Positions 5,486 to 56,627 of a stretch of DNA of 64,000 nt are shown one piece after another. The notes beneath the pieces are model-generated. The model was not told where the DNA came from and did not search any database. It was given only the letters and a program-made list of their open reading frames with translations. The translations under genes were made by a program, and so were the position numbers. The DNA lies in NCBI GenBank assembly GCA_021414225.1, contig JAIOOX010000002.1, positions 25,113 through 89,112 of the forward strand, read 5' to 3'. Each line of letters begins with the position of its first letter. Positions within the stretch are counted from its first letter, which is position 1. The DNA comes from Candidatus Vogelbacteria bacterium (lineage in GTDB: Bacteria > Patescibacteriota > Minisyncoccia > Phycocordibacterales > XYD1-FULL-46-19).

Positions 5486-7381
5486 TTAAACTTCAATTAA
5501 GACAGGAAGAATGATTGGTCGTTTGTGAGTTTTTTGGAAGAGGTATCTACCCAAGTCTTCTCGAACGGAATTTTTGAGATAATCAAAATTAATTGGGTGC
5601 ATTTTACTGGTGGCGTCTTCAATTGTTTTTTTAGTTAAGCCACGAACTTGGTGAAGGAGATCTTGAGATTCTTTTAGATAAACAAAGCCACGAGAAATAA
5701 TGTCTGGTGATTTGCGAACCTTACCAGTTTTTACATCAATAATGGCGATGACCACAAACATACCGTCTTGTGACAAGACCTGTCGATCACGAATGACTAC
5801 TTCTTGAACATTGTCGTTGCCTAAACCGTCAACCATTACTAAGCGACTAGAAGCTGTTTCCTTGCGAGGGATCATTTTGGTTCCACCTTCAATGATTTCT
5901 ACAATCATGCCGTTGTCTGGTACAACAATATTTTTCTCAGGCATACCTAGTGAAATGGCTAAATCTTCGTGAACGCGCAACATGTAATGACTGCCGTGTA
6001 CTGGCATGAAGAACTTCGGCTTAATCATTTTGTGAATCCAGGCCATTTCACCACTGTAAGAGTGGCCAGATGAGTGGACGTTGGCGATACCATAGTGAAT
6101 GATCTTAGCTCCAAGGCGAGCTAAGTTGTCTTTCAATCGATCAACACTTTTTTCATTACCAGGAATAACAGATGAAGATAGTAAGACAGTGTCTCCCTTT
6201 TTCAATTTGAAAGTACGGTGTTCTTTATTGGAGATACGCATTAAAGCAGCAAACTCGTCACCTTGAGCGCCGGTAGCCAAGACTACTAGACGATCGTCGG
6301 GATAATCCCCAATACTTTCTGAGGGGATAATAGTATCTTTGTTTACTTTAAGAATACCGAGTTCTTTAGCGATCTCGATATTATTTTTCATCGAACGTCC
6401 TTCGACGGCGACTTTTTTGCCCAATTCTTCAGCGGACTGAACAACTGAGATGATGCGATCAAATAAAGAAGCAAAAGTCCCAATAACTATTCGGCCGGGC
6501 ACGTTGCGGATGATTTCTTTTAGGTTGGCGTGGACTTCTTTTTCTGGATAAGAGAATCCTTCCTTGGTGACGTTTGTGGAATCAGCGATAAGGAGTAGAT
6601 TATTTTCCGCTCCGAGTTTAGTGTAGGTATCAATCTCAAATTGAGCTGGAACACCATCCTTATTTTCGATTTTTAAATCGCCAGTGAAAATGACATTACC
6701 ATAAGGGGTTTCGACGATGACACCAAAACAGTCAGGAATAGTGTGAGTGGCCCCGAAGAAACGAATCTTAAGGTCTCCTAGTTGCAAACTCTCATGTTTT
6801 TCCACCAAACGAATATCTAGTTTGGGTAGATAAGGAAATTCTTCTTGACGCTTCTTAATCATAACTGAGGTCAATAGAGAAGTATAAAGTGGCGGATTGC
6901 CGAGTTTTGGCATGACATAAGGGATACCCCCGATGTGGTCAAGGTGGCCGTGAGTAATAATAACCGCTTTGATTTTGTGTTTATTATCTTCAACGTAAGT
7001 AGAGTCAGGAATAATGTAATCAATACCAGGAGTTTCTTCGCCAGGGAAAGCTAGACCGATGTCGATCACTAAAATGGTGTTATCAAATTCGATTGCGGTC
7101 ATATTCTTACCGATTTCTTCTACCCCTCCAAGAGGAATAACCCGGATAACACCCGGGTCAATTGGTGGAATAATTTGTTTTTGACGATTATCGCTTTTCT
7201 CACCACCATCACCACTGTTGTGGGGTTGGCTATTACCGAAAGGTCGACGACGTGGGCCACCTGGTCGAGAGTTAGGTGGGCGTCTGGTTGGTCGACGATT
7301 GCCGGCTGGTTTTGGTTTATTGGTGTCAGGACTTGGGACGGTGGCCGGAACTGCTGTTTGGTTGCTATCTGTTGTTTCCAT
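5486..7381 (-). CDS. rnj: Ribonuclease J (metallo-beta-lactamase / beta-CASP family) with a roughly 75-aa Pro/Arg/Gly-rich N-terminal extension
   Basis: HGHLDHIGG motif, beta-CASP region, C-terminal RNase J domain. N-terminus PATVPSPDTNKPKPAGNRRPTRRPPNSRPGGPRRRP is low-complexity and basic. Confidence 0.85.
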   Translation of the reverse strand: METTDSNQTAVPATVPSPDTNKPKPAGNRRPTRRPPNSRPGGPRRRPFGNSQPHNSGDGGEKSDNRQKQIIPPIDPGVIRVIPLGGVEEIGKNMTAIEFDNTILVIDIGLAFPGEETPGIDYIIPDSTYVEDNKHKIKAVIITHGHLDHIGGIPYVMPKLGNPPLYTSLLTSVMIKKRQEEFPYLPKLDIRLVEKHESLQLGDLKIRFFGATHTIPDCFGVIVETPYGNVIFTGDLKIENKDGVPAQFEIDTYTKLGAENNLLLIADSTNVTKEGFSYPEKEVHANLKEIIRNVPGRIVIGTFASLFDRIISVVQSAEELGKKVAVEGRSMKNNIEIAKELGILKVNKDTIIPSESIGDYPDDRLVVLATGAQGDEFAALMRISNKEHRTFKLKKGDTVLLSSSVIPGNEKSVDRLKDNLARLGAKIIHYGIANVHSSGHSYSGEMAWIHKMIKPKFFMPVHGSHYMLRVHEDLAISLGMPEKNIVVPDNGMIVEIIEGGTKMIPRKETASSRLVMVDGLGNDNVQEVVIRDRQVLSQDGMFVVIAIIDVKTGKVRKSPDIISRGFVYLKESQDLLHQVRGLTKKTIEDATSKMHPINFDYLKNSVREDLGRYLFQKTHKRPIILPVLIEV

Positions 7382-12704: not shown

Positions 12705-13310
12705 ATGCTAAAATTGGAGCTAGAAATTATTCGTTTAATTAACTTTATTATGATTATTTTATACGTGTTAATTGGAGTAGTGGTAGTGATTGGTCTGTGG
12801 TTTGCCTTGTCTTACAACGGTTTTATTAGTCTGGTCAACCGAACCAAAGAAGCTTGGTCTGACATTGAGGTTCAAATGAAGCGTCGTTATGATTTGATCC
12901 CTAACTTGATCAATACCGTTAAGGGTTATGCTTCACACGAAAGTGCCACTTTTGAAAAGATTACCCAAGCTCGTTCTCAAGCAATGCAAGCGGGAACAGT
13001 CGCTGAACACGCTCAAGCGGAAAATATGTTAACCGGGGCGCTTAAGTCACTCTTTGCTGTATCGGAAGCTTATCCAGATTTGAAAGCGAATGCTAACTTC
13101 CTAGAACTACAGCGAGAATTGTCTGACACCGAAAACAAAATCCAAGCTGCTCGTCGTTTCTACAACGGCAATGTTCGTGATCTAAACACTAAAATTGAAT
13201 CTTTCCCATCTAACTTTATTGCTAACATCTTTAAGTTTACCGCTCGAGAATTCTTCGAATTAGATGAATCTGAACAAGCAGCGAAACAACCAGTGGAAGT
13301 AAAGTTCTAA
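12705..13310 (+). CDS. lemA: LemA family protein
   Basis: Single N-terminal TM, then YNGFISLVNRTKEAWSDIEVQMKRRYDLIPNLINTVKGYASHE, typical LemA. Stop overlaps the start of the next gene (taaatg). Confidence 0.75.
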   Translation: MLKLELEIIRLINFIMIILYVLIGVVVVIGLWFALSYNGFISLVNRTKEAWSDIEVQMKRRYDLIPNLINTVKGYASHESATFEKITQARSQAMQAGTVAEHAQAENMLTGALKSLFAVSEAYPDLKANANFLELQRELSDTENKIQAARRFYNGNVRDLNTKIESFPSNFIANIFKFTAREFFELDESEQAAKQPVEVKF

Positions 13311-15302
13311 ATGTTGGTTAGGCTAGTAAAATACATAACAATTCCGGCCCTAGTTTTTTTTCTAGTGCCGGTTTTGGTTTTTGGCCAGAGTAATCGATCA
13401 TATTTCTATGATCAGATTGTGGTCGACATTCAAACCAATAAAGATTCTACGGTCGATATAACCGAACGACAGACATATCATTTTAACGGAGAATATCACC
13501 AAGGTTGGAGATCCATTCCTTTAAAAGGATTTAGTAGTATTACTGATGTTGTGGTTAGCAATTCTGATGCCCCGCTTAAATATTCTTCTCGGCGACTCAA
13601 TAAGCTTGATCCGGCTAGTTGGGGTCACTACACTTACTTCAAAGATGAAAACGGTTTTAATATCGAATGGTATTTTGGTCCCAATGATGTTCCTGAGTGG
13701 ACACTCTCCTATAAAGTGCATGGAGCGATTAGTTTTCTAAAAGACAAAGACGAACTATATTGGAATATTTTTAGTGATTATTCTGTACCAGTCGACTCCC
13801 TGGAAGTTCATGTTTTTCCTCCAGACGAAGCGCTGGCAGCTAATCAAATACAGTCAACGGTTTATACATCCTCTGTTCCATACCAGTCTTGGCCAGAAGT
13901 TTATAAAGATTCTACCTCTGGCATAAAGTTGGCTGGGTTAACTATGCAGCTCCATGATGCTCCCCCTTATGAAAAGGTGACTGTTGCTGTCGGTTGGCCC
14001 AAAGAGATTGTTGACCAAGGGGCTTTTTGGAGGTGGTGGCTAGGTGATAATATTTTGGCAATTGTTATGGGGGTATTAATAATTTTGAATATGATAGGTT
14101 GGTTTGGGTATTGGTATTTTACTGAACGTTTTCGCAAAGGGACTGGAACCATTATTCCGCAATATGAACCGGCTTTAAATTTAAGACCAGCTGAGGTGGA
14201 GGTGGTGATGAAAGAAAGTGTTACCGCAGTTGGTTGGTCAGCGACCGTTGTGGATTTAGCGGTGAGGGGATTTCTTTTGATTAAAGAAGATAAAACCAGA
14301 ATTCCAAAATTTATTAAATGGGCTTACAGCTTGTTTTTTATAGGTATTTTTATTTTCTTAGGCTCTGGTTTTGTGGGAGCTCTTTCAAGTCATCAAACAA
14401 CGAATATTGGATTTATGGCAGTGTTTTCCTTTTTTATAATAGGTTCTTTTATAGTTGGCCTAAGTAAGTTTTCAAAAAAAGATTATTTGGTTGAAAAAAC
14501 TAATAAAGATAACTCCACCCTACTATCTTACGAGAGAGAATTTATTAACATTTTGTGTGGTTCTACTAGTTACGTTTTTTCAACCAGAGAACTTAGGACT
14601 AATGAATCTATGGCTAAGAAGATTTATGAGAGAATGAAAAAAAATGAAGTAGACTTATATAGTATTCTTGATAAAGATAACAATCTATATAGTAACAATT
14701 TAGCTAAAGAAAAAAAGGGTCAAGTCGTCTTTTTGTTTATGGTCATGGGTAGTTTTTTCGTCATCTGGTTAGGGAGTTTTTTCAGTCCGGTGTCTGATTT
14801 TATTTTGAAATATTTCGGTGTAGAGTTCTTAACTTTACCAATACTAGTTGTTGTATTTTTGTTGTTAACATTGGTAAACATTTGGTATTTTTTAATTAAA
14901 TACGAAGCACGTTTGTCGGATAAAGGTAATAAAGCCAAAGAAGATTTACTTGGGTTTAAGTTGTATCTAAAAACAGCTGAACGTTATCGGTTGCAAAATC
15001 TGACGCCAGATTTGTTTGAAAAGTTTTTACCATACGCCATGGTGTTTGGAGTTGAGAAAGAGTGGGGTAAAGCCTTTGCTTCACTCAGTGTTCCACCTCC
15101 ATCTTGGTATAGTGGTGCCTATGGAGGGGCTACAATGGGATCTTCTTCAATAAGTAGTTCCGGATTTTCCGCTGGGGCCTTCTCGTCTTCTTTTTCTTCT
15201 AGTTTCTCATCGGCTTTTTCTAGTTCTGGAGCTAGTGGTGGTTCGGGTGGGGGTGGTTCTGCTGGTGGCGGTGGAGGAGGAGGTGGAGGTGGGGCTAGTT
15301 AG
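13311..15302 (+). CDS. DUF2207-type membrane protein (usual LemA partner) with a Gly/Ser-rich C-terminal tail
   Basis: 663 aa: signal peptide, extracytoplasmic domain, several TM helices, C-terminal SSSFSSSFSSAFSSSGASGGSGGGGSAGGGGGGGGGGAS. Confidence 0.6.
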   Translation: MLVRLVKYITIPALVFFLVPVLVFGQSNRSYFYDQIVVDIQTNKDSTVDITERQTYHFNGEYHQGWRSIPLKGFSSITDVVVSNSDAPLKYSSRRLNKLDPASWGHYTYFKDENGFNIEWYFGPNDVPEWTLSYKVHGAISFLKDKDELYWNIFSDYSVPVDSLEVHVFPPDEALAANQIQSTVYTSSVPYQSWPEVYKDSTSGIKLAGLTMQLHDAPPYEKVTVAVGWPKEIVDQGAFWRWWLGDNILAIVMGVLIILNMIGWFGYWYFTERFRKGTGTIIPQYEPALNLRPAEVEVVMKESVTAVGWSATVVDLAVRGFLLIKEDKTRIPKFIKWAYSLFFIGIFIFLGSGFVGALSSHQTTNIGFMAVFSFFIIGSFIVGLSKFSKKDYLVEKTNKDNSTLLSYEREFINILCGSTSYVFSTRELRTNESMAKKIYERMKKNEVDLYSILDKDNNLYSNNLAKEKKGQVVFLFMVMGSFFVIWLGSFFSPVSDFILKYFGVEFLTLPILVVVFLLLTLVNIWYFLIKYEARLSDKGNKAKEDLLGFKLYLKTAERYRLQNLTPDLFEKFLPYAMVFGVEKEWGKAFASLSVPPPSWYSGAYGGATMGSSSISSSGFSAGAFSSSFSSSFSSAFSSSGASGGSGGGGSAGGGGGGGGGGAS

Positions 15303-16603: not shown

Positions 16604-17452
16604 ATGTCCATTTTTCAAGAAATAAAAAATAGTTTATACAATCCTGGCTATTATCAAGACTTAATTGAGAAGCCTTTTTCTCATTCGGTTAAATATTATT
16701 GTGCTTTAACTTTGGTATTAGGAATTATTGTGACAATGATTGGGTCAGTTTTAATTGTTCCAGCTTTTAATGTGGTGGTCTGGGGAGTGAAAGAGGTGGT
16801 CTTGTCTGTTTATCCTGATGATCTGAAAATTTCAGTAGAAAGTGGTTTGGTTAAGACCAATGTTCAAGAGCCATTTGTGATTGCGATCCCAGAAAAGTAT
16901 CGAGCAGAAGCTGGTGGCAAGAAAAATTTACTAGTCATCGATACTTCAACCACAACCAGTCCAGAAAAACTGAAATCATACGAGACGGTCGCCCTTTTAG
17001 CCAAAGATTCTATTATTTACGAAAGCGGAGTTGATGGTCAATCTGATGTTCAGTCTTTTGATTCAGATTTGAGTTTTAAATTAGATAAAGAGGGAATTGG
17101 TCGTTTTTTCAATGAGATTGAACCGTATTATAAGTTTCTAACTCCAATTTTAGTGCTTGGTTTATTTATGTTGGTGGTGTTGATTATGGTGGGTACTATG
17201 TTGTACTTACTTTTGGTAGCCTTACTGGTTTGGATTTTGGCCGCTTTAAACAAGTGGGATATTAGTTATCTGAAGGCTTATCAAATGAGTCTTCACTTTG
17301 CCACTTTGGGTTTTGTGGTAGCCTTAATTAGTATCCTCGTTTTACCTGGAGGTAGTGCTCTTATTCTGTTCACTGCCACTCTGGTTTTGTTAGCCTTGGT
17401 GACTTTTAAGGTAGGTAATGACGAGTCAAAACCAGAAGTGGAGGTCAACTAG
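16604..17452 (+). CDS. DUF1189-like membrane protein. Paralog of the 33960..34778 gene.
   Basis: N-terminal MSIFQEIKNSLYNPGYYQDLI closely parallels MKFIQSIKDSVYGPALYKKLV at 33960, with the same TM layout. Confidence 0.5.
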   Translation: MSIFQEIKNSLYNPGYYQDLIEKPFSHSVKYYCALTLVLGIIVTMIGSVLIVPAFNVVVWGVKEVVLSVYPDDLKISVESGLVKTNVQEPFVIAIPEKYRAEAGGKKNLLVIDTSTTTSPEKLKSYETVALLAKDSIIYESGVDGQSDVQSFDSDLSFKLDKEGIGRFFNEIEPYYKFLTPILVLGLFMLVVLIMVGTMLYLLLVALLVWILAALNKWDISYLKAYQMSLHFATLGFVVALISILVLPGGSALILFTATLVLLALVTFKVGNDESKPEVEVN

Positions 17453-18176: not shown

Positions 18177-18926
18177 ATGGAAATACTAAAACAACAATCA
18201 AAAAAAGAGCGAGATGAACAAAAAGCTAATAATCGGGCAGTAGTTAGGGTTATTTTCTGGATTCTGGTTATTTTAGCTATTGGTGGGTCTGTGTTTGCGA
18301 CGGCTAAATTAGCCAAGATGAGTAAGAATTCAGAAGTGGCTGGAGGAACCGTTTCTCAGGTTGGACCGACTGATCATACTATTGGCAACGCCAGTTCCTC
18401 TTTAGTGTTAGTGGAATACTCTGATTTTCAGTGTCCAGCTTGTAAGGCTTATTCGCCGATAGTGAAAGAATTGGTAGCTACTTACAAAGACGATATGTTG
18501 TTTGTTTATCGTCACTTCCCTTTGTATCAGATTCACCTAAACGCTAGGATAACAGCTCAAGCCACTGAAGCGGCTAATAATCAAGGTAAATTTTGGGAGA
18601 TGCATGATATTTTGTTTGCTAACCAGGCTGAGTGGTCCAGCAAGAGTCCTAGTAATATTGAAGTAGTTTTAGCTCAATATGCAGGCCAGATTGGTTTAGA
18701 TGTTGAGAAATTTAAAGCTGATTTGAATTCAGTAGCCGCGAAAGATCGGGTGGCAGCTGATTTGGCTAGTGGAATGAAAGCCCAAGTGGGTGGGACCCCA
18801 ACCTTTTTTCTTAACGGTAGAATGTTAGACCATGAAGAAATCAGTACTGATCAAAAATTTAAAGCGTTAATAGATAAAGCTTTAGCCGACATTAATAGTA
18901 ATCAAGCTACTTCCACGGTTGAATAA
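18177..18926 (+). CDS. DsbA-like thiol:disulfide oxidoreductase, membrane-anchored
   Basis: N-terminal TM helix. Thioredoxin-fold CxxC active site FQCPACKAY. Confidence 0.7.
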   Translation: MEILKQQSKKERDEQKANNRAVVRVIFWILVILAIGGSVFATAKLAKMSKNSEVAGGTVSQVGPTDHTIGNASSSLVLVEYSDFQCPACKAYSPIVKELVATYKDDMLFVYRHFPLYQIHLNARITAQATEAANNQGKFWEMHDILFANQAEWSSKSPSNIEVVLAQYAGQIGLDVEKFKADLNSVAAKDRVAADLASGMKAQVGGTPTFFLNGRMLDHEEISTDQKFKALIDKALADINSNQATSTVE

Positions 18927-18928
18927 AA

Positions 18929-19372
18929 ATGGATCAATCTAATCAACCTGTTCCAATTTGGTTTACTTTGACACTGTCTCTAGTGGCGGTAATTGGTTTT
19001 TTAGATGCTACTTATTTGACCATTAATCATATAGTTTTTGGCTCAACCCCTTGTACTCTTTTAGAAGGGTGTGAGATAGTCACTTCCAGTGTTTATTCAA
19101 CGATTTTCGGTGTTCCGGTCGCTTTATTTGGTGCCATCTTTTACTTAATAGTCCTACTCTTGTCTTTGTGGTACTTGGACAGTCGTCAACCTTGGGCATT
19201 GTCGGCAGTTGCTTATCTGTCTGTGCCAGCTGTATTAGCGTCGGTGGTTTTTGTTGGGCTACAAGCTTTCGTACTGAAAGCTTTTTGTCTGTACTGTTTG
19301 ATTTCTGCTCTTACTTCTACCATTATTTTTATTTTAGGGATGTCTTATTTGGTTTTGTTCCGTAAAGCTTAA
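18929..19372 (+). CDS. VKOR (vitamin K epoxide reductase) family protein, DsbB-like partner of the DsbA-like protein
   Basis: Four TM helices, loop cysteine pair TPCTLLEGCE, active-site CLYC. Translationally coupled to the upstream DsbA-like gene. Confidence 0.65.
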   Translation: MDQSNQPVPIWFTLTLSLVAVIGFLDATYLTINHIVFGSTPCTLLEGCEIVTSSVYSTIFGVPVALFGAIFYLIVLLLSLWYLDSRQPWALSAVAYLSVPAVLASVVFVGLQAFVLKAFCLYCLISALTSTIIFILGMSYLVLFRKA

Positions 19373-33959: not shown

Positions 33960-34778
33960 ATGAAATTTATACAATCCATTAAAGACAGTGTTTATGGCCC
34001 TGCTCTATATAAAAAACTGGTCGCTGGGGGAGTGCCCTTCGGGACATCGGTTCGTTACTTACTAAAGTTGTTGGCGTTGGCTACTTTAGTGTCTTGGCTC
34101 ATGCTGGCTTCAGCGGCTGGAGGACTTCTCTACTTTGGGGCTAAGGTGATAGGTCCAGAGTTGGTTAATCAATATCCTGCCGAATTAGAAGTGGTGGTAA
34201 AGAATGGACAAGTTTCTACTAATGTAGCCTCCCCATATATGATTGCCCTGCCAGCCGATAAAGTTAAGGCGGGGGCAGAATCAATTACGAATGTTTTGGT
34301 GATTGACGTGGTTAATGAACCAACTTATGAAAAGTTTTCGGAATACAAAACCTTGGCTTTAGTTAGTCAAAAAACAGCTTGGTATAAAAACGAAGACGGT
34401 CAAGTAACGATTGTTTCTCTCGAAAAGTTTCCTAATGTAACAATCAACAAAATGTTGGTTGATGTGTGGTATCCAAAAGTAGCGATGTTCTTGAAAGGCG
34501 CTTTTGGAGTCTTTATTTTGGTGTTATTCCCAATTATTTACGCCGGCCTGATTATTTATTATCTAATCTATCTATTGTTAGCCGCTTTGTTGGTATTTGG
34601 TTTGTTAAAAATCTTAAAAATACCCGCTAACTATAGTCGGTCATATCAACTAGCTATTCACGGGGCTACCTTAACTATTGTAGTAGGAGCGGTAGCTTTT
34701 CTCTTGCCAGTGGTGGAGTTTCCTTTTTTGGGAACTTTGATCTTGTTGGCGGTGGTGGGAGTAAACTTGAAGAAGTAA
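33960..34778 (+). CDS. DUF1189-like membrane protein. Paralog of the 16604..17452 gene.
   Basis: Same N-terminal motif and TM architecture as the 16604 ORF. Confidence 0.5.
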   Translation: MKFIQSIKDSVYGPALYKKLVAGGVPFGTSVRYLLKLLALATLVSWLMLASAAGGLLYFGAKVIGPELVNQYPAELEVVVKNGQVSTNVASPYMIALPADKVKAGAESITNVLVIDVVNEPTYEKFSEYKTLALVSQKTAWYKNEDGQVTIVSLEKFPNVTINKMLVDVWYPKVAMFLKGAFGVFILVLFPIIYAGLIIYYLIYLLLAALLVFGLLKILKIPANYSRSYQLAIHGATLTIVVGAVAFLLPVVEFPFLGTLILLAVVGVNLKK

Positions 34779-42260: not shown

Positions 42261-42872
42261 TTAGTTAATACTACCTGGTAAAAAATCGATCATATTGAAA
42301 GGGAACAGTCGAATTAAAGCTCGGCCCCGGAATAATTCTTCTGGGACTGGTCCCCAGGCGCGTGAGTCTAGGCTCCAGTCACGATTGTCACCCATGACAA
42401 AATATTCTCCAGCTTCTAGTTTGCGATTTAAATTAACAGCCCCTAAACCATTAGTGTAGTTGGCTTGAGACTCGTCTAGTTTAACTGCCTCGCCAGTACT
42501 AGAGGTGACCGAAACTTGTTTACCTCTGATGGTGACTGTCTCACCAGGTAGGCCAATTACTCGTTTGATAAAATATTTGGATGGATCTTTCGGGTAATGG
42601 AAGACAGCTACTTCGCCGCGGATAGGAGAACGAAATTGATAGGATAGTTGATCTATTATTAAGTACTCGCGGTTTTTAAAAGTGGGAAACATGGAGTCGC
42701 CACTAACGATAAAAGGTTGAGCGACGAAAGTACGGATCGGGACAACAATGATGAGGATGGTAAGAGCGAAACGAACAGCTTCAATGAGTGATTTTTTTGA
42801 CTCTGGAGTCATGAGATATTTTTTAGTAATAAAGATGCGGTAGATTGTACTGGAAAAAAGGCTTTGACGCAA
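42261..42872 (-). CDS. lepB: Signal peptidase I
   Basis: SGDSMFPTF (Ser box), KRVIGLPGETV, GDNRDWSLDSR (Lys and Asp boxes). Confidence 0.8.
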   Translation of the reverse strand: MRQSLFSSTIYRIFITKKYLMTPESKKSLIEAVRFALTILIIVVPIRTFVAQPFIVSGDSMFPTFKNREYLIIDQLSYQFRSPIRGEVAVFHYPKDPSKYFIKRVIGLPGETVTIRGKQVSVTSSTGEAVKLDESQANYTNGLGAVNLNRKLEAGEYFVMGDNRDWSLDSRAWGPVPEELFRGRALIRLFPFNMIDFLPGSIN

Positions 42873-49197: not shown

Positions 49198-49725
49198 ATG
49201 GCATTTGCTAATCCTCAAGAATTTGTTAAACAGCTAGATCTTAGTCCTCGTTCAACGGTGGCTGATTTTGGAGCTGGTTCTGGGGCCTGGACTTTGGCGC
49301 TCTCCAAATATTTAACCGGGGGAACCGTCTATGCGATTGATATCCAAAAAGAATTGTTGGGTAGTTTGCAAACTGAAGCCACAAAAGCTGGTCTAGCCAA
49401 TATTCATTACTTGCAGGGTGATCTAGAGAGTCGCGGTGGTAGTAAGTTAGCTGATGAGGAAGTCGATGTGGTTTTAATTGCGAATATTTTATTTCAAAGT
49501 AAGTTGAAATATTCGATCGCTTTAGAGGCTAAGAGAATTCTAAAACGCACCGGTCAGGTGGTGGTGATTGAGTGGAAGGAATCTTTTGGTGGTATCGGAC
49601 CAAAAGCGGAAGACGTTGTCTCAGCTAAAGAAATTCAGGAGGTGTTTGGTCAAGCTGGTTTCGTGGAGCAATCAACAATTGATGTTAGTGATCAACATTA
49701 TGCTATGATATTTGTGAAGGGCTAA
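49198..49725 (+). CDS. Class I SAM-dependent methyltransferase
   Basis: VADFGAGSGAWTLAL (motif I, glycine-rich), 175 aa. Confidence 0.6.
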   Translation: MAFANPQEFVKQLDLSPRSTVADFGAGSGAWTLALSKYLTGGTVYAIDIQKELLGSLQTEATKAGLANIHYLQGDLESRGGSKLADEEVDVVLIANILFQSKLKYSIALEAKRILKRTGQVVVIEWKESFGGIGPKAEDVVSAKEIQEVFGQAGFVEQSTIDVSDQHYAMIFVKG

Positions 49726-49733
49726 TTTTTTTT

Positions 49734-51035
49734 ATGAAGAAAATCAATATTTTTCAGATAGTTCTACTTTTCATCTTTGGGTTTGGTTTGGTCATTGGGG
49801 TGTTAATCTTTTCGGGTATATTACCTGGTTTTAAAAAGACAACCACTGTCAGTCAAAAGTCAGTGGTCATGTGGGGGGATATAGCAGTCAGTAAAGCATC
49901 TAATTTTATAGCTGAACTTAATCGAGCAAACAAAGATTCTTTTTTTGTCAGTTATGTTTATAAGGACCCTAGTACTTATGAGACTGAGTTAATCAATGCA
50001 CTAGCTCACGGTAAGGGTCCGGATTTAATTCTTCTTCATGACAGATCAATTGTTAAGTTAGAAAAATTGATCGAGCCACTACCTTATACTTCTTTACGGG
50101 TAACTGATTTTAAGAATACTTTTATTGATGGAGCTAGTGTTTTCTTGACCTCGGTTGGCACTTTAGCTATTCCTATCAGTGTTGATCCGTTGGTGATGTA
50201 TTACAACAAAGATCTTTATATTAAAGCTAATATTTTTCAACCGCCTCAAAATTGGTCTGGTTTCCAAAACAATCATAAGGTTTTAAACTCGGTTAGTGAC
50301 CAGGGGATCATCTCTCAAAGCGGGGTAGCTTTAGGTAATTTCCCTAACATAAAAAACGCAAAAGAAATTTTACTGACTTTATTGATGCAGGCTGGTGCCC
50401 CTTTGGTTGTTAGAACACCTAATAATAATTACCAAGTGTCATTGGGTGATATTTCTGGCAATAGTAATAGTATTTACTCAGCTTTAGATTTCTTTACCAG
50501 ATTTGCTACTCCAGGCCGAGCGGAATATTCTTGGAATAATTCATTTCCAGAAGCAGCTACCACCTTCACTAATGGCTTTACAGCTAATTATTTTGGTTTC
50601 GCTAGTGAAATCCAAACCCTGCGAGCTCTCAATCCTAATTTAAACTTAGCGATCACTTCTTTACCTCAAATAGACGAGGCTCCTCGACCTTTGACGTATG
50701 GTCGTTTGGATGGAGTGGCGGTTTTGAAAAGCTCCAAAAATAAATCAGTGGCTTTTTCAGTAGCTATAGCGATGTTTGATCGAGAAAATAGTGCTAAATT
50801 ATCTGAGGCTTTATCATTAGCCTCTCCTCGCAAAGATTTATTGGTGCGTATTTCCAATGATGAATTTAAAGATCTCTTTAATCACTCAGCTTTGATTTCT
50901 AGTTCGTGGCTGGATCCAAATCCTGATGCTTCCAAAAAGGTATTTCAATCCAGCGCTAACGCTGTCACGATTGGTATTAATGGACCAGAAAAATCTATGT
51001 CTCAAATGTTCGAACAATTAAAAAATTTATTTTAA
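49734..51035 (+). CDS. Membrane-anchored extracellular solute-binding-protein-like protein (family 1 SBP-like). Orphan: no permease or ATPase nearby.
   Basis: N-terminal TM anchor, then an SBP-like pattern (VVMWGD...YETELINALAHGKGPDLILLHD). 433 aa. Confidence 0.45.
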   Translation: MKKINIFQIVLLFIFGFGLVIGVLIFSGILPGFKKTTTVSQKSVVMWGDIAVSKASNFIAELNRANKDSFFVSYVYKDPSTYETELINALAHGKGPDLILLHDRSIVKLEKLIEPLPYTSLRVTDFKNTFIDGASVFLTSVGTLAIPISVDPLVMYYNKDLYIKANIFQPPQNWSGFQNNHKVLNSVSDQGIISQSGVALGNFPNIKNAKEILLTLLMQAGAPLVVRTPNNNYQVSLGDISGNSNSIYSALDFFTRFATPGRAEYSWNNSFPEAATTFTNGFTANYFGFASEIQTLRALNPNLNLAITSLPQIDEAPRPLTYGRLDGVAVLKSSKNKSVAFSVAIAMFDRENSAKLSEALSLASPRKDLLVRISNDEFKDLFNHSALISSSWLDPNPDASKKVFQSSANAVTIGINGPEKSMSQMFEQLKNLF

Positions 51036-51041
51036 TTAACA

Positions 51042-51518
51042 ATGAATATAAATAAATTATCTTCAGGATTAATTATTTTATCTCTAGTTTTTGTTGGGCT
51101 ATTTTTTATTGCGCCGGTGGTTGATGCTCAAGTGGTTAGCAAGTTGGTTCCTTGTGGTGACGCTGGACGACCAGACTGCACTTTTAAAGATTTAGCTCTT
51201 TTGATCACGGCGGTGATTAAGTTTCTGATTTTTCAAGTAGGAATATTGGTAGCCACCATTGTGATTATTTGGGGTGGGGTGCTTTATGTTTTGTATCCTT
51301 ATAAACCAGGTTACAAAGATACTGCCAAAAAAATGATTACTGGTTCGATCGTGGGCCTACTTATTATGATGGGAGCGTATCTCATTGTTAAAACCCTGGT
51401 TACTAGTGTGGTCGGCCCTTCGGCTGATGACGCTAATCCAGCTGATAAGGCGGATTTGATTGAGGCGGTTAATAATACTTTTCAAGATTTACCAAATACT
51501 TCCCAGTCACCAAACTAG
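51042..51518 (+). CDS. Pilin-like small secreted/membrane protein, paralog 1 (TrbC/VirB2-like two-helix hairpin)
   Basis: Signal peptide (...VVDAQ), then the conserved hairpin LIFQVGILVATIVIIWGGVLYVLYPYKPGYKDTAKKMITGSIVGLLIMMGAYLIV shared with the next four ORFs. Confidence 0.5.
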   Translation: MNINKLSSGLIILSLVFVGLFFIAPVVDAQVVSKLVPCGDAGRPDCTFKDLALLITAVIKFLIFQVGILVATIVIIWGGVLYVLYPYKPGYKDTAKKMITGSIVGLLIMMGAYLIVKTLVTSVVGPSADDANPADKADLIEAVNNTFQDLPNTSQSPN

Positions 51519-51552
51519 TAAGTATCTTTTCCCTTTGAATATTTAATTTGTT

Positions 51553-51954
51553 ATGATTACTGGTATGAAAAAAATATGCAAATCACTTTATTTAAAAGGG
51601 TTGGGTATTTCGGTGTTTCTGGTGCCTTTATTGAGCTCGGCGACAACCGACGTTAACCCTGGTGGAGGGGACTCTTTTTCGCTGCAGATTGTTAACCCTC
51701 TCAGTGTTGGTAGTTTAGAGGGGCTGCTCGATTTATTACTGAAAATTTTATTACAGATTGGTATACCGGTGGTCACTTTTATGATCATTTGGTCTGGTTT
51801 CTTATTTATTAAAGCTCAAGGTAAAGAGGGTGAAGTGACCAAAGCCAAAGAAAATTTACAATGGGTCCTAATCGGGACAGCAATTGTGTTGGGGGTTGGT
51901 TCAATCTTAGCTATTATCAAAACAACTGTCGCTGCCTTGGGTGGTGGTGTTTAA
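51553..51954 (+). CDS. Pilin-like small protein, paralog 2
   Basis: Signal peptide, then IGIPVVTFMIIWSGFLFIKAQGKEGEVTKAKENLQWVLIGTAIVLGVGSILAI (same WG...K-rich...second TM pattern). Confidence 0.5.
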   Translation: MITGMKKICKSLYLKGLGISVFLVPLLSSATTDVNPGGGDSFSLQIVNPLSVGSLEGLLDLLLKILLQIGIPVVTFMIIWSGFLFIKAQGKEGEVTKAKENLQWVLIGTAIVLGVGSILAIIKTTVAALGGGV

Positions 51955-51961
51955 TTAAATC

Positions 51962-52492
51962 ATGACATATTTAAAATCAAAGAAGTTTAGTTGCTTGAGT
52001 CTCGGTTTATTTTTAGTGGCTATCATCTTAGTTCCAACTTTAGCTTTAGCTCAACCTGGTGGTTTGCCTGGTGGAGCTGGTAACGGGTCGGGCGGGAACG
52101 GGGGTCCTTCAGGGGGGGATATTCCTGGTGGTGATGGTGGTTCTGGGACTATTCCGAATAATACCAACCAGGGCTGCGATCTATCAACGGCTACTTTTAA
52201 GACGCTGGTCGACTGTGTTCGTGATTCAATCGTGGTGCCTATTATTAACCTACTCTTGGCTTTGGCGGTCTTGGTCTTTTTTTGGGGCTTAGTCAAATAT
52301 CTATATAAAGGTGATAACGACGCTGAGCGGACCAAAGGTAAAAGTTTGATGGCTTTTGGGATCATTGGACTTTTTGTAATGGTAAGTGTTTGGGGGATAG
52401 TTGGTTTGTTAACTGGAACTTTTTTTGGGGCTAGTGGTCCAGCAGGTGTTAATCCACCGGTTCCTCAGTTGCCAGCTAGTATTACTCTATAA
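51962..52492 (+). CDS. Pilin-like small protein, paralog 3, with a Gly-rich linker
   Basis: Signal peptide (LALAQP), GGxGG low-complexity linker, CDL...LVDC cysteine pair, then LALAVLVFFWGLVKYLYKGDNDAERTKGKSLMAFGIIGLFVMVSVWGIVGLL. Confidence 0.5.
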   Translation: MTYLKSKKFSCLSLGLFLVAIILVPTLALAQPGGLPGGAGNGSGGNGGPSGGDIPGGDGGSGTIPNNTNQGCDLSTATFKTLVDCVRDSIVVPIINLLLALAVLVFFWGLVKYLYKGDNDAERTKGKSLMAFGIIGLFVMVSVWGIVGLLTGTFFGASGPAGVNPPVPQLPASITL

Positions 52493-52552
52493 GGGTGGTA
52501 TAATGTTCTTATTATTAAATTGGGTCGTTTATTATTTTATTTTTTAAATTAT

Positions 52553-52933
52553 ATGAAGAAAGTTGTTGCAACAATTGGTTCTGGTTTAGCTTTGACGCCT
52601 TTCTTGGCTCTAGCTCAAAGTTTTGATCCGAATGGTTATATCGCAAGTATCATAACTTCCTTTAGTGGTTGGATTAATGTGCTTATCGGTATTTTGGTTA
52701 CCTTGGCCGTTTTGGTTTTTATTTGGGGTTTGATCACTTACTTGCTTAATGCTAGTAATGAAGAAAAGCGCTCAGATTCAAAGTGGTATATGATTTATGG
52801 TATAGTTATTTTGTTCGTTATGGTTAGTATTTGGGGTCTAGTAGGGCTTCTTCAAAATATTACTGGAGCGGAATCTAACGTAGACGCTGGTGGTATTGAT
52901 ATTCCAACAGTAACAGGTACAGATATTCAGTAG
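52553..52933 (+). CDS. Pilin-like small protein, paralog 4. Internal Met start used; the ORF track starts at 52520.
   Basis: Signal peptide (FLALAQS), then LIGILVTLAVLVFIWGLITYLLNASNEEKRSDSKWYMIYGIVILFVMVSIWGLVGLL. Very close to paralog 3 in the hairpin. Confidence 0.5.
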   Translation: MKKVVATIGSGLALTPFLALAQSFDPNGYIASIITSFSGWINVLIGILVTLAVLVFIWGLITYLLNASNEEKRSDSKWYMIYGIVILFVMVSIWGLVGLLQNITGAESNVDAGGIDIPTVTGTDIQ

Positions 52934-52938
52934 CTAAC

Positions 52939-53175
52939 GTGGTTATCATTGAAAATCTTAAGAGTCAGATATTAAACCCCTTGATTGGTTTCTTGTTTGT
53001 GTTGGCCACCCTCTACTTTGTGTGGGGAGTGTTCCAATTTATTCAAAATGCTGATAGTGATACTGGCCGACAGCAAGGTCGCGACAGTATCTTGTGGGGA
53101 TTGTTTGGAATGTTCATCATGGTAGCCGTGTTTGGGATCATGTGGACTATTTGTAACACTGTTCAGTGTCAATAA
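52939..53175 (+). CDS. Pilin-like small protein, paralog 5 (minimal, hairpin only)
   Basis: LIGFLFVLATLYFVWGVFQFIQNADSDTGRQQGRDSILWGLFGMFIMVAVFGIMW, followed by a C-terminal CNTVQC. Confidence 0.45.
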   Translation: MVIIENLKSQILNPLIGFLFVLATLYFVWGVFQFIQNADSDTGRQQGRDSILWGLFGMFIMVAVFGIMWTICNTVQCQ

Positions 53176-53196: not shown

Positions 53197-53229
53197 AAAG
53201 CCGCCTCGCGTAAACGCTTGGCGGCTTTG
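53197..53229. terminator. Hairpin aagccgcc-tcgcgtaaacgctt-ggcggctt between the pilin-like array (+) and the GC-rich island (-)
   Basis: 8-bp GC stem with a 14-nt loop. Confidence 0.5.
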
Positions 53230-53260: not shown

Positions 53261-54142
53261 CTACATCTTGTATAGGTAGACAGTCACCGTGGTTTCCTTA
53301 CCATTGGTTGATTGGAACTTCAGTGTTCCGAGGTTGTTGAGATTGATGCCGTGGTTGACACCTTTCTCGGCTTGAGGGTTATCGGTGTAGGGCGCGTCCA
53401 TATATGGCCTCACCCCGTTTCCCACGACCATGACCACGTCGTGGGGATTGAACGTGACCTTGTAGTGGCTAACCACAAGAGTCACTTCCAGGTCCTTCTC
53501 GCCGGTTTTGGCCTTCATCTTGCCTTCCCCGGCGCTCGCTGTTTCGCCAATAGTCTTGGACCAGCCGGTGGCTGGTACAGAGACAGTGAACTTGGCGATG
53601 TCGTGTGCTCCCTCCGGTAACGGGCCGATCCGTTTGGGGTCGACCTTGGTTCCAGGTAGGGTGGGGAGACTCAAGTTCTGGAAAACAACCTTAGGGTCTG
53701 TTTCACCTAACCCATTAGCATTAGCTAGTGGAGTCAGAATCAACAAGAGTAACCCAGTGGTCAAGGCCGCTTTCCAGAAGCGTGACCTTCCAATCCTGAC
53801 GGCGTCTTTCTCGTAGGAGAGAAAGTACGAACCGCCAGCCATGAGAAGGACTACCATTGCGATGATGGTGTAGCCCGTGTTGGTCACGAACCACAAGAAC
53901 CAGGCTGGGAACACCCACCAGGTGGCGAAGACCACCACAGTCCAGTAGGCGACCCAGGCACCAGTTAGGAATGGATCCCACTCTGGACCTTTCGGTTTAG
54001 GGGCTGTTACGGGAGTGCCACCAGCAGTGGTTGTCCTGGGAGTTGGGCCTCCTGTAGATTTCCACATTTTTCTGACATCATCCCAGTATCGGAAGAGGGC
54101 TACTAACCCGATTCCGAGTAAGGCGATTGCTACCGAACTCAT
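53261..54142 (-). CDS. NfeD-like membrane protein (TM helices plus C-terminal beta-rich soluble domain). GC-rich foreign composition.
   Basis: 293 aa: Pro/Thr-rich linker, about four TM helices (WVAYWTVVVFATWWVF..., IIAMVVLLMAGGSYFL..., LTTGLLLLILTPL), beta-strand-rich C-terminus. Four-base overlap with the upstream SPFH-like gene. Confidence 0.35.
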   Translation of the reverse strand: MSSVAIALLGIGLVALFRYWDDVRKMWKSTGGPTPRTTTAGGTPVTAPKPKGPEWDPFLTGAWVAYWTVVVFATWWVFPAWFLWFVTNTGYTIIAMVVLLMAGGSYFLSYEKDAVRIGRSRFWKAALTTGLLLLILTPLANANGLGETDPKVVFQNLSLPTLPGTKVDPKRIGPLPEGAHDIAKFTVSVPATGWSKTIGETASAGEGKMKAKTGEKDLEVTLVVSHYKVTFNPHDVVMVVGNGVRPYMDAPYTDNPQAEKGVNHGINLNNLGTLKFQSTNGKETTVTVYLYKM

Positions 54143-55521
54143 GAAGTAGAACCTTTCTTTTTCCTCGCCGGCTTTTGAGTGGCTGGCGGAGTCGTAGGTT
54201 GAGTCTCCGGTTTTGTTTCAGAGACTTTTTTCAGGGTTTGGGCGATTTGGGTTGCTATCCCCGAGATACCCCCATCGCCGATAATGTGCACGGCATTGGG
54301 GTTGCTCAGGCCTGCCTTGGCCGCGTCAATGACAAGGGCCTCTTGGCCCGACACTCCCGTGGCGGTTTGGATTTTTTTGAGTCCAGCCGCCTCGGCAGTC
54401 ATCATTCGCAGGTGGTTGTTAGCGAGAGCTTCCCCTGCGCGTTGTGTTTCCACCCCTTTCCCAATAGACTCAGCGATTTTTTGGATCTCTGCGTTGAGGG
54501 AGTGACTGGTCAACACCTTGAAGTTTTTGACCTGAGTGAATCTCAAGCCAATCTCGTCTTCTATCAGTTTTCGCAGGGCGTTAACCGATAGTCTTTTGAT
54601 ATCTGGTCTGGTTGTGGTGGTCACCTCTTTGTAGTCTATCCTGTTCTCTGCGAGAGCTTCCAGGACATATCGGGTGACGTAGCGGCTGATAGCATCAACA
54701 TTACGTTGTGCGCGGGCCGCCGTGCCTACCTGGCAGACTGAGCGCATCCCACTTTCGATCAGGTCTCGGACGTAATTTGTGGCGTCCTCGATCGAGTCGA
54801 AAGCGATGTCAAACCGCAAGCCTTTGGTGATTTGCATTGTGTAGGACGCCGACACCTCCGCAATGACCCGGGTTTTAAGCGGGTCCTTGTATTGATCGGC
54901 TATCTCATCCTTAACTTGTCCCTTGTCTGGTTTTACCACCACTGCCGGGACGAAGTTGTATTTTTCCTCGGTGGCGGGATCTCCCAAAGTTGGAGTAATT
55001 GTCACCGTCTGACTCAGTATATCTTCTTCGTCGGCAGGATCAGCGGATTCAAACGGCACAAAAATTGGTTCTATCCAATAATCTGGTACCATCTTCCCAC
55101 TGGCATCCTTTTTCATCCCTTTTGGCTCAGAGGGTAGTGGTTGCGGATTTCCTTGGTCGTCCTTTCCCCTCCAGAGATCTTCTGGGTTGGCAGGTACTTC
55201 TCGGGTGATGATCGCTCTCGGGTAACGATTGACGGTTGTCAGTCCCCAAAATCCAGGGACGATACCAGCATCGATTGATCCGATGCGATAGCCCAGAAAT
55301 TGAAGGACCCCCACATCTTTCGCGCCGTCCACTTTGGTGTGAATGGTGCCGTAGAGACAGTAGGCAATCCACCAGATCAGTACGACGTTTCTCCAGTTGA
55401 TACTGGTGGACGTCTCATTTTGATTTTCCACCGGCAGGCCGTTAGGCATTGCCAAGTAGATGATCACAAAGATTGCTACCATAACCACGATGGACCATCC
55501 TGAATACTGACGGGTTGTCAT
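54139..55521 (-). CDS. SPFH / band-7 (stomatin/flotillin)-like membrane protein, divergent. GC-rich foreign composition.
   Basis: N-terminal TM helix, then GVLQFLGYRIGS...PGFWGLTTV resembling the SPFH core (ERFGRY...PGLxxxxPF). Long Ala/Glu/Gln-rich helical region and a basic Pro/Thr-rich tail. GC-rich third codon positions, unlike the neighbouring genes. Confidence 0.35.
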   Translation of the reverse strand: MTTRQYSGWSIVVMVAIFVIIYLAMPNGLPVENQNETSTSINWRNVVLIWWIAYCLYGTIHTKVDGAKDVGVLQFLGYRIGSIDAGIVPGFWGLTTVNRYPRAIITREVPANPEDLWRGKDDQGNPQPLPSEPKGMKKDASGKMVPDYWIEPIFVPFESADPADEEDILSQTVTITPTLGDPATEEKYNFVPAVVVKPDKGQVKDEIADQYKDPLKTRVIAEVSASYTMQITKGLRFDIAFDSIEDATNYVRDLIESGMRSVCQVGTAARAQRNVDAISRYVTRYVLEALAENRIDYKEVTTTTRPDIKRLSVNALRKLIEDEIGLRFTQVKNFKVLTSHSLNAEIQKIAESIGKGVETQRAGEALANNHLRMMTAEAAGLKKIQTATGVSGQEALVIDAAKAGLSNPNAVHIIGDGGISGIATQIAQTLKKVSETKPETQPTTPPATQKPARKKKGSTS

Positions 55522-55866: not shown

Positions 55867-55913
55867 ACAAAATAAAAAGCCCCAAAGCTATCGCTTTGAG
55901 ACTTAATATTTTG

Positions 55914-55995
55914 TGAGCGAGGGGAGACTCGAACTCCCAACCCGTGAGGGACTAGTTCCTAAGACTAGCGCGTATACCAATTCCGCCACTCGCCC
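55914..55995 (-). tRNA. tRNA-Leu (anticodon TAG), type II
   Basis: Minus-strand read GGGCGAGTGGCGGAATTGGTATACGCGCTAGTCTTAGGAACTAGTCCCTCACGGGTTGGGAGTTCGAGTCTCCCCTCGCTC. Anticodon loop ctTAGga, long variable arm. Confidence 0.8.
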
Positions 55996-56023
55996 GATGT
56001 TTTGTTGTGAGAAATTCGGTCAC

Positions 56024-56166
56024 AAATAATTTTGCTGTGCAAAATTTTCGCGACCCCGCCTCGGTCACAGTCTTCGACTGGCTTTGCGACCTGTGGCTTT
56101 CGAATCCCTCACAGGGACTACCAAACAATATTCATTCAATATTTTATATTGAATTCATTTGTTTGG
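56024..56166 (-). repeat. Family 3 tRNA-spacer repeat, copy b, plus an 88-nt near-perfect palindrome (56098..56185) that runs into the tRNA-Lys 3' half
   Basis: ttcgaatccctcacaggg (56098..56115) is the exact inverted copy of the tRNA-Lys T-arm / acceptor 3' strand at 56168..56185. The spacer between them, actaccaaacaatattcattcaatatttt | atattgaattcatttgtttggtg, is itself palindromic. Confidence 0.6.
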
Positions 56167-56239
56167 TGCCCTGTGAGGGATTCGAACCCCCGACCATCTC
56201 CTTAAGAGGGAGTTGCTCTACCAACTGAGCTAACAGGGC
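56167..56239 (-). tRNA. tRNA-Lys (anticodon CTT)
   Basis: Minus-strand read GCCCTGTTAGCTCAGTTGGTAGAGCAACTCCCTCTTAAGGAGATGGTCGGGGGTTCGAATCCCTCACAGGGCA. Anticodon loop ctCTTaa. Confidence 0.8.
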
Positions 56240-56290
56240 AATTGTAGGATTATAGTTTATTTGAGGGGGAAATTCAATTTTATAACCAAG

Positions 56291-56433
56291 TAAGTTGGGA
56301 CTCTCCTTTGACTTAAAATTTTCTACCCGAAAATTTTAGTCTAGGCACCGCCTCGCGCCGAAATGTTGCTACATTTCGACTTCGTGCGCTCCGGCGTTCG
56401 AGTCCCACCCAAAATTTAACTTTGTTAAATTTG
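56291..56433 (-). repeat. Family 3 tRNA-spacer repeat, copy c, ending in an inverted copy (ttcgagtcccaccc) of the tRNA-Leu(TAA) T arm
   Basis: AT-rich hairpin gacttaaaatttt-ctacccg-aaaattttagtc, then tctaggcaccgcctcgcgccg...cgacttcgtgcgctccggcgttcgagtcccaccc, about 75% identical to copy a, then palindrome aaaatttaac-tttg-ttaaattt. Confidence 0.6.
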
Positions 56434-56514
56434 TGCCCGGGGTGGGACTCGAACCCACAAGGCTTGCGCCACACGATTTTAAGTCGTGCGTGTATACCAT
56501 TCCACCACCCGGGC
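56434..56514 (-). tRNA. tRNA-Leu (anticodon TAA), type II
   Basis: Minus-strand read GCCCGGGTGGTGGAATGGTATACACGCACGACTTAAAATCGTGTGGCGCAAGCCTTGTGGGTTCGAGTCCCACCCCGGGCA. Anticodon loop ctTAAaa. Confidence 0.8.
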
Positions 56515-56555
56515 ATATTTTTTAAAATCAATTTGCTACTGCAATTTGATTTTTG

Positions 56556-56627
56556 AGGCGTGGGCGGGAATCGAACCCGCGTATAAAGCTTTTGCAGAGC
56601 TTCGCCTTACCACTTGGCCACCACGCC
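56556..56627 (-). tRNA. tRNA-Cys (anticodon GCA)
   Basis: Minus-strand read GGCGTGGTGGCCAAGTGGTAAGGCGAAGCTCTGCAAAAGCTTTATACGCGGGTTCGATTCCCGCCCACGCCT. Anticodon loop ctGCAaa. Confidence 0.85.

Follow-up and report, generated by a model that had tools for sequence, protein, structure and literature searches.

An ordered array of five VirB2/TrbC-like pilin genes behind a solute-binding protein gene in Candidatus Vogelbacteria

Gene content of the array

We analyzed a 64,000-nt stretch of Candidatus Vogelbacteria DNA (hereafter the window, with positions numbered from its first base), in which five small genes encode predicted pilin-like membrane proteins directly behind the gene of a solute-binding-fold protein (SBP). 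An original prediction had described these genes as divergent paralogs with the two-helix hairpin of TrbC/VirB2-type pilins of type IV secretion systems (T4SS) and had placed the host in the candidate phyla radiation (CPR), in agreement with the organism. The listing of open reading frames (ORFs) bears out the proposed run of five consecutive same-strand genes: they follow each other on the plus strand between 51042 and 53175, encode 158, 133/129, 176, 137/126, and 78 aa, and are separated by gaps of 5–60 nt (Table 1). The shorter lengths of the second and fourth proteins (129 and 126 aa) correspond to the internal ATGs at 51565 and 52553, as used by NCBI. NCBI records MCE9628563–MCE9628567 are the exact sequences of genes 1–5 (neighborhood MCE9628560–MCE9628569, locus tags K8Q91_010xx); gene 1 is labeled "pilin" there, and genes 2–5 are labeled "hypothetical protein". 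The records belong to a metagenome-assembled genome and lie on a contig of 409,485 bp; beyond them, exact copies of window proteins turned up on short Logan contigs of run SRR15633504 alone.

Hydropathy and alignments give every array protein two strongly hydrophobic helices and, between them, a short loop enriched in Lys, Arg, Asp, and Glu. Two motifs had been said to be common to all five proteins. For the first (IIWGG, IIWSG, FFWGL, FIWGL, FVWGV), this holds for the Trp, which is the sole residue invariant among the five, whereas the second, (V/I)WG(I/L)VG, is limited to genes 3 and 4 and, in part, gene 5. Sequence reading and a hydropathy script point to a signal peptide in four of the five proteins, as had been proposed: the N-termini of genes 1–4 are basic and then hydrophobic up to the sites given in Table 1, and gene 5 starts at the hairpin. 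Genes 1, 3, and 5 each have a Cys pair in a part predicted to be exposed. The pair that had already been noticed beside a Gly-rich linker is that of gene 3, and the pair of gene 1 is kept in the consensus of its orthologs.

Pairwise phmmer comparisons place the predicted paralogy of the five genes above chance. Genes 3, 4, and 5 match each other with E values of 1e-13 to 1e-20 (2e-19 for gene 3 against gene 4), genes 1 and 2 match at about 1e-9, and weaker links run across these two subgroups. Identity between array members is only 19–29% over the full length and 15–44% over the core, which, with E values down to 1e-20 and a common best Pfam family, fits the divergent paralogs of the original prediction.

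A GC-rich inverted repeat behind gene 5 looks like a terminator and may mark the end of the transcription unit of the array. Its T-run is weak, and it was missed by a consensus terminator scan; consensus scans of the window for promoters and terminators gave nothing better than shuffled sequence.

Table 1 Features of the pilin-like array and of its surroundings in the window.
Feature	Positions	Strand	Description
Pilin-like gene 1	51042..51518	+	158 aa; signal peptide VDA↓Q; LVPC-x8-C exposed motif; hairpin; 33-aa acidic C-terminal tail
Pilin-like gene 2	51565..51954	+	129 aa from ATG 51565, ORF opens at 51553; signal peptide SSA↓T; hairpin
Pilin-like gene 3	51962..52492	+	176 aa; ALA↓Q signal peptide; ~40-aa Gly/Pro-rich linker; Cys pair; hairpin; Pro-rich tail
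Pilin-like gene 4	52553..52933	+	126 aa from ATG 52553, ORF opens at TTG 52520; ALA↓Q; short N-segment; hairpin; 22-aa tail
Pilin-like gene 5	52939..53175	+	78 aa; GTG start 6 nt past gene 4 stop; bare hairpin without signal peptide; C-terminal C-x4-C
MalE-type SBP	49734..51035	+	433 aa; one N-terminal transmembrane helix, no lipobox; 6 nt before gene 1
Class I S-adenosylmethionine-dependent methyltransferase	49198..49725	+	175 aa; Pfam Methyltransf_31/11/25; between gyrA and SBP, 8 nt upstream of SBP
GC-rich inverted repeat	53197..53228	.	15-nt arms, 2-nt gap; between convergent gene 5 and 293-aa gene
Signal peptidase I (LepB)	42261-42872
DsbA-like thioredoxin protein	18177-18926	+	directly upstream of VKOR-family protein
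VKOR-family protein	18929-19372	+	extracytoplasmic disulfide-forming pair with DsbA-like protein

Family assignment of the array proteins

PF18895 (T4SS_pilin) is the best Pfam family for all five proteins, with 23.1, 32.3, 43.3, 25.3, and 25.8 bits for genes 1–5 (E values of 8e-5, 1e-7, 3.8e-11, 1.6e-5, and 1.1e-5, respectively; gathering cut-off 26.6 bits). Membership is indicated by the scores of genes 2 and 3, which lie above the cut-off, and by the ~70-residue helix-turn-helix membrane hairpin found in all five. The TrbC/VirB2 family PF04956 (cut-off 27.9 bits) was matched by gene 2 (20.3 bits, E of 6.5e-4), gene 1 (15.7 bits, E of 0.017), and gene 4 (13.4 bits), and not by genes 3 and 5, so that gene 2 is the most TrbC/VirB2-like member of the array. 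The window proteins themselves stay below this cut-off, and the similarity to PF04956 proper is carried by their positional orthologs, the genes at the same array positions in the related loci described below. Among the gene-2 orthologs, 42 of 43 match PF18895 and 36 of 43 match PF04956 at E ≤ 0.01 (best TrbC E value 8e-10); for gene 1, the counts are 38 and 18 of 40 (best TrbC E value 2e-7).

Genes 3, 4, and 5 also align with NCBIfam NF045849, a pilin-like conjugal transfer protein of Mycoplasma integrative and conjugative elements (ICEs), with E values of 1.6e-4, 4.8e-5, and 1.5e-7. These matches span the whole 80-position model and reach at most 31 bits against a curated cut-off of 40. Gene 5 matches IncI1 TraQ (NF033883) with an E value of 0.003, and weaker library matches, including VirB2 PRK13857, point to T4SS pilin-like families. 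When aligned by hhalign with three annotated VirB2/TrbC proteins, the leader, the AxA↓Q site, and the helices are collinear, although the alignments are weak (probabilities of 71% and 15%). The three reference VirB2 genes (Ti-plasmid, pNHA01, and pACMV2) do adjoin virB3/virB4.

An AlphaFold2 model of gene 4 has the expected hairpin, with a helix at 29–68, a 4-residue turn, and a second helix at 73–104 (helix pLDDT of 77–79). A profile built on the five hairpins found 647 proteins in a word-indexed database; among the best 120 of these, nearly all carry a precomputed PF18895 match, and the named ones belong to Parcubacteria/Paceibacteria lineages. With a broader family profile, 47,036 clusters of representative proteins were found at E ≤ 1e-3 and 8,975 at E ≤ 1e-10, which makes this a very large family.

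In two related loci, L108 (10001-11531) and L109 (10001-11659), four of the five array genes lack a precomputed Pfam match, yet the gene-2 ortholog profile picks them up. Array counts based on Pfam will therefore miss members.

We regard the predicted placement of the array proteins in the PF18895 branch of the VirB2/TrbC superfamily as well supported. In the profile searches, no holin or other family came near the PF18895 scores. The central pilin idea of the original prediction is right, but it is already in the literature.

The solute-binding protein and related loci

The protein encoded just upstream of the array matches SBP_bac_8 (3e-13) and SBP_bac_1 (4e-11) in Pfam, and its best match in a profile search of the PDB is 4r9f, MBP1 (E of 1e-27), followed by other sugar-binding proteins. 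Its N-terminal transmembrane helix looks uncleaved and is conserved to the same degree as the folded domain. No ABC permease or ATPase gene (BPD_transp, ABC_tran) was found in the 64-kb window, nor within 10 kb in the annotated related loci L001–L006, L102, L103, L108, and L109.

Related loci were collected by scanning metagenome contigs with an SBP alignment and keeping the best 80 matches, whose SBPs are 34–46% identical to that of the window and which sample one large Paceibacteria-like lineage. A scan of genome contigs with the single SBP sequence gave two relevant loci and ordinary actinobacterial SBPs. From the 80 loci, the genome-derived loci, and the window, we retained 48 loci with at least 3.5 kb downstream of the SBP, a few of them near-duplicates. 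In 47 of the 48, at least three same-strand pilin-like ORFs directly follow the SBP. The arrays comprise four to eight genes, most often five (25 loci), then six (11 loci) or four (8 loci), more rarely eight (2 loci) or seven (1 locus). From the called genes, the distance between the SBP stop and the first pilin start is 2–7 nt, or the two overlap by 4 nt. While the gene predicted upstream of the array is indeed a solute-binding protein, its description as an orphan did not hold, since it is the constant partner of the array.

The same arrangement was reached from the pilin side. Eight pilin homologs located on long contigs by two profile searches all lie in a locus with the order gyrA, methyltransferase, SBP_bac_1/8, and four to six pilins, with convergent genes next and rbfA and IF-2 farther along; one of these contexts is the complete 705-kb genome CP064973.1. 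Ten contexts in total were reached by way of the pilins, and each pairs the SBP with an array. The pairing of SBP and array withstands rearrangement. It is kept where gyrA and/or the methyltransferase are missing (L076, L077, L085, L090, L059, L073, and L103) and in L102, where a Y1-type (IS200/IS605-like) transposase gene (6225-6872, minus strand) lies between the methyltransferase and an intact SBP–pilin string. It also outlasts the inversion in L008, a 6-kb contig on which the SBP and three pilin genes point in divergent directions. The SBP is thus the most constant neighbor of the pilin array and its conserved partner. The methyltransferase is a usual but not obligatory neighbor of this module: most related loci have it ahead of the SBP, in L108 and L109 with a 4-nt overlap of the SBP start, and L059, L073, L076, and L103 lack it.

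Positional orthology and sequence evolution

Array positions correspond between loci. The first position best matches gene 1 in 39 of 47 arrays and the second best matches gene 2 in 40 of 47, while the penultimate position best matches gene 4 in 36 of 46 and the last best matches gene 5 in 39 of 46, the last gene also being the shortest (median of 93 aa). This correspondence holds across genomes whose GyrA proteins are only 65–85% identical, and the extra copies in the larger arrays are of the gene 3/4 type. A conserved ortholog at each position indicates that the paralogs are old and individually retained.

Between the window and its closest relative (L020), identity falls from 85% for GyrA and 66% for IF-2 to 53% for the methyltransferase, 46% for the SBP, and 34–51% for the pilins; pilin and SBP sequences evolve fast. 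The original prediction had seen in the array a hypervariable repertoire for antigen variation, a claim that the data do not support. The positions are orthologous across genomes, all five genes are complete with no silent or truncated cassettes in the array, and no DNA repeats of the kind used in recombination occur among the paralogs, which share only matches of 14–33 nt at the W-G motif. The array is an old, ordered set of specialized paralogs, with two TrbC-like members first, then PF18895-type members, and a leaderless one last, rather than an interchangeable pool.

Among the representative proteins, single polypeptides were found that carry 3–11 hairpins behind one signal peptide (P0133, P0136, and P0207). 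Such natural fusions suggest that different copies work side by side and are used simultaneously. In these three proteins, each hairpin unit is preceded by a Cys-containing exposed linker, and many of the top-scoring members of the pilin family are multi-hairpin fusions of the same kind.

In three related loci (L095, 8326-9732; L070, 8319-9398; L080, 8295-9593), the first pilin gene encodes 359–468 aa, of which an N-terminal extension of 290–390 aa gives weak fibronectin-III and purple-acid-phosphatase-N matches and the C-terminus is the PF18895 hairpin. The pilin hairpin can therefore carry a large passenger domain.

Genomic context of the array

A Pfam scan of all window ORFs of at least 110 aa recovered no T4SS ATPase, VirB6, or type IV pilus gene, and phmmer with the Ti-plasmid VirB4 detected nothing related in the window or across some 100 related loci, in line with the earlier statement that no T4SS ATPase or VirB6 gene lies in the window. 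The remaining ORFs of this size are housekeeping genes, including UvrD, RNase J, GroEL, ribonucleotide reductase, MurJ, LepA, FtsZ, FtsA, GyrA, and IF-2, or have no assigned function. In a second pilin-profile search, no further pilin on the contig of the window appeared among the best 120 matches. A phage or mobile-element context for the array was rejected, PHROGs being negative for its neighbors.

Downstream of the array, two overlapping genes on the minus strand (53261-55521) encode proteins of 293 and 460 aa (397 aa for the second in NCBI). Their G+C contents are 54% and 51%, compared with 41% for the window, and neither protein has a Pfam or PHROG match. For the 460-aa protein, the only homologs at this position, 25% identical and of normal G+C, are in L020 and L035, even though the GyrA of L020 is 85% identical. 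Other relatives have a Band_7 (SPFH) gene and a small gene in this slot, and the 293/460-aa pair is not detectably related to the Band_7 pair found there in L003. Four tRNA genes (Leu, Lys, Leu, and Cys) are clustered nearby (55913-56627), and the pair may be a replacement by foreign DNA beside this cluster. Elsewhere in the window, we noted two paralogous DUF1189 membrane proteins of 282 and 272 aa (16604-17452 and 33960-34778, both plus strand) and a LemA–DUF2207 pair (12705-15302).

Proposed function and alternative readings

Tandem arrays of VirB2-like pilin genes have been described in Patescibacteria. A search of 3,035 genomes with PF18895, PF04956, and the CONJScan pilin models found both VirB2-like pilins and VirB4 in 1,948 assemblies, with the pilins near virB4 in 1,135, and 441 arrays of 2–11 pilin genes in 383 assemblies (Quinonero-Coronel et al. 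2025, PMC12102498). In that survey, within-array identity had a mean of 25% and a maximum of 54%, Paceibacteria was the most represented class, and the Patescibacteria VirB4 was closest to the monoderm MPF-FATA class. Among the three Vogelbacteria assemblies in the accessible part of its Table S1, two have VirB4 and one does not.

We consider it moderately probable that the five genes encode VirB2/TrbC-superfamily pilin-like proteins, as one instance of these known arrays, and that they build a heteromeric, T4SS-dependent surface filament or part of a channel. The products of genes 1–4 would leave by the Sec route and lose their leaders to signal peptidase I, and that of gene 5 would be inserted leaderless; AxA-type sites in genes 1–4 and a LepB gene within the window are the signs of such processing in the sequence. 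Each protein would sit in the membrane as a helix-turn-helix hairpin, with the positive turn in the cytoplasm and the variable N- and C-terminal ends facing outward, some of them stabilized by disulfides. The DsbA-like/VKOR pair (Table 1) is in keeping with the Cys pairs conserved in the outward-facing segments of genes 1, 3, and 5. A VirB4-type T4SS encoded elsewhere in the genome would then extract the subunits and co-assemble them, and the polymerized product, either a heteromeric filament on the surface or the outward portion of a secretion channel, would be used in host-cell contact. Positional orthology, together with the natural hairpin fusions, favors co-assembly over alternation. Rapid evolution of pilins and SBP, exposed ends that vary, and large N-terminal domains in some cases are all compatible with a role at the host-cell interface, and host attachment or DNA uptake, as originally suggested, are plausible uses.

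Several observations weigh against this proposal. Genes 1, 4, and 5 fall short of the PF18895 cut-off by 0.8–3.5 bits, the confidence of the gene 4 model is moderate (mean pLDDT of 65), and a profile search of all PDB sequences returned no pilin, only cytochrome oxidase helices at E > 0.3. Neither the window nor the 7–10 kb around the array in some 100 related loci encodes VirB4, VirB6, VirB3, or VirD4. A 2025 review (PMC12857230) speaks only of the "potential to elaborate conjugative pili", and no T4SS pilus on a Patescibacterium is reported in the literature examined. Finally, the linkage of SBP and array lies inside a broadly syntenic region running from gyrA to IF-2, so inherited gene order may explain part of it.

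The close rival to a filament is that the hairpins are pilin-like components of a monoderm-type T4SS channel spanning the membrane and cell wall, never extended into a pilus, as is presumed for the Mycoplasma ICE protein; taken by itself, we hold this to be rather unlikely. It draws on the resemblance of genes 3–5 to NF045849 (the Mbov_0395 family; E values from 1.5e-7 to 1.6e-4), on the MPF-FATA affinity of the Patescibacteria VirB4 (PMC12102498), and on the fact that no Patescibacteria T4SS pilus is reported as observed (PMC12857230), and fusions of 3–11 hairpins would be no less compatible with a fixed oligomer in the membrane than with a filament. However, the NF045849 scores reach 31 bits where the cut-off is 40, the canonical pilus-forming TrbC/VirB2 is matched by genes 1 and 2 and by their orthologs, and the long exposed N-terminal domains on gene 1 of some relatives suggest surface display. 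A repertoire of alternative pilins, used singly or swapped to vary antigenicity or host specificity, appears improbable to us. The low within-array identity (19–29%), exposed segments that differ in length and composition, orthologs only 34–51% identical where GyrA is 85% identical, and a copy number of four to eight that varies mainly in the middle gene 3/4-type copies would all suit it, and the surface-variation idea is raised for pilin arrays in the published discussion (PMC12102498). The array nonetheless keeps an ortholog per position across distant genomes, consists of five complete genes in a tight same-strand string with neither silent or truncated cassettes nor shared DNA repeats >33 nt, and has natural fusions that imply simultaneous use.

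A T4SS-independent module, in which the anchored SBP and the hairpins form their own uptake or adhesion complex and the pilin likeness reflects shared ancestry only, seems to us very improbable. In its favor, the SBP–array linkage is nearly invariable and never beside T4SS genes in the loci examined, no ABC permease or ATPase gene is near the SBP in any annotated locus, and the transmembrane anchor of the SBP is conserved like its folded domain. Such a complex has no precedent, though, and the family evidence is that of T4SS pilins; in Saccharimonadia, homologous arrays are part of the T4SS cluster and share its essentiality (PMC10633639), and the DctQ matches of 6 of the 43 gene-2 orthologs look like noise of transmembrane composition. 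That the proteins are unrelated holin-like or DUF-type membrane peptides, matched to pilins through hydrophobic composition, has hardly any probability left. They are short and hydrophobic, three of the five are below the PF18895 cut-off, and gene 4 has many weak matches to unrelated membrane families. Against this, PF18895 ranks first for each of the five proteins and for 80 of 83 orthologs, the family profile reaches the thousands of clusters reported above, and holin matches are marginal (once in the window, E of 0.078, and in 1 of 43 orthologs). With no phage context either, the holin reading was rejected.

For the SBP, the tight, rearrangement-resistant linkage and the lack of transporter genes suggest a joint function with the pilins, perhaps as their glycan-recognizing or assembly partner. 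More tentatively, and with a low probability, the anchored MalE-type SBP and its ordered set of four to eight VirB2-like pilins could form one functional surface module of the core genome, in which the SBP would be a glycan-recognizing adhesin, tip, or assembly factor of a heteromeric pilus contacting the cell-wall sugars of the host. If true, this would be a pairing of pilus and receptor not described for any T4SS.

Significance

Patescibacteria account for much of bacterial diversity, most of them living in attachment to other microbes, and little is understood of how they hold and exploit their hosts. In the one available genetic study, a transposon-sequencing analysis of Southlakia epibionticum, the T4SS and a predicted series of pilins within its cluster were essential for epibiotic growth (Wang et al. 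2023, PMC10633639); the 2025 review cites Southlakia as the only example known of a monoderm-type T4SS with VirB2-like subunits (PMC12857230). The present locus brings no new kind of system. For Paceibacteria, it presents the pilin set as a stable, ordered module of the core genome, physically apart from the secretion ATPase genes and coupled to a surface protein with a sugar-binding fold. Should this coupling be functional, it would name a concrete candidate for host recognition and give a defined six-gene target for expression, multimer modeling, and imaging.

Comparison with known systems

The single VirB2 or TrbC of diderm T4SS (Agrobacterium VirB2, RP4 TrbC) shares with the array proteins the AxA leader, a short exposed N-segment, two helices with a basic turn, and a core of ~70 aa. 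The proteins described here differ in scoring below the PF04956 cut-off, in being five paralogs not beside virB3/virB4, in their long variable N- and C-terminal extensions, and in their monoderm-type envelope. Multi-copy VirB2 genes of Bartonella and Anaplasma (cited in PMC12102498) are likewise divergent and in tandem, and surface variation was proposed for them; those copies belong to diderm pathogens of eukaryotes and are located with the virB genes, whereas the present array has positional orthology and no signs of recombinational variation.

Single-membrane cells offer two further parallels. The Mycoplasma ICE protein (Mbov_0395 / MMCAP2_0565) aligns through NF045849 with genes 3–5, and its T4SS class is the nearest to the Patescibacteria VirB4; here, the scores are below the cut-off, the genes are multi-copy rather than single-copy as in the ICEs, and the locus is chromosomal and non-mobile. 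The archaeal Ced and Ted systems, with pilins such as CedA1, place VirB2-like pili on cells with one membrane (Beltran et al. 2023, PMC9905601). They are likened to the present locus by description, as chromosomally encoded hairpin pilins that do not serve plasmid transfer; Ced imports DNA and has the CedB ATPase as a neighbor, while no ATPase is linked to the locus described here.

The closest counterparts are the Patescibacteria arrays themselves (PMC12102498, PMC10633639), with which the five genes share the PF18895/PF04956 families, the phylum, an array size within the range of 2–11, an identity of ~25%, and mostly Sec signal peptides. Unlike those arrays, and unlike the homologous ones that lie inside the T4SS cluster in Saccharimonadia, the present array is neither in nor near a virB4 cluster. 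It occupies instead a conserved housekeeping locus of Paceibacteria (gyrA, methyltransferase, SBP, pilins), where a MalE-type SBP precedes members that are positional orthologs. We found no mention of this arrangement in the searchable literature, and an SBP followed by ordered pilins away from virB4 is apparently undescribed. With that particular setting, the five-gene array is one more instance of the published tandem VirB2-like pilin arrays of Patescibacteria.

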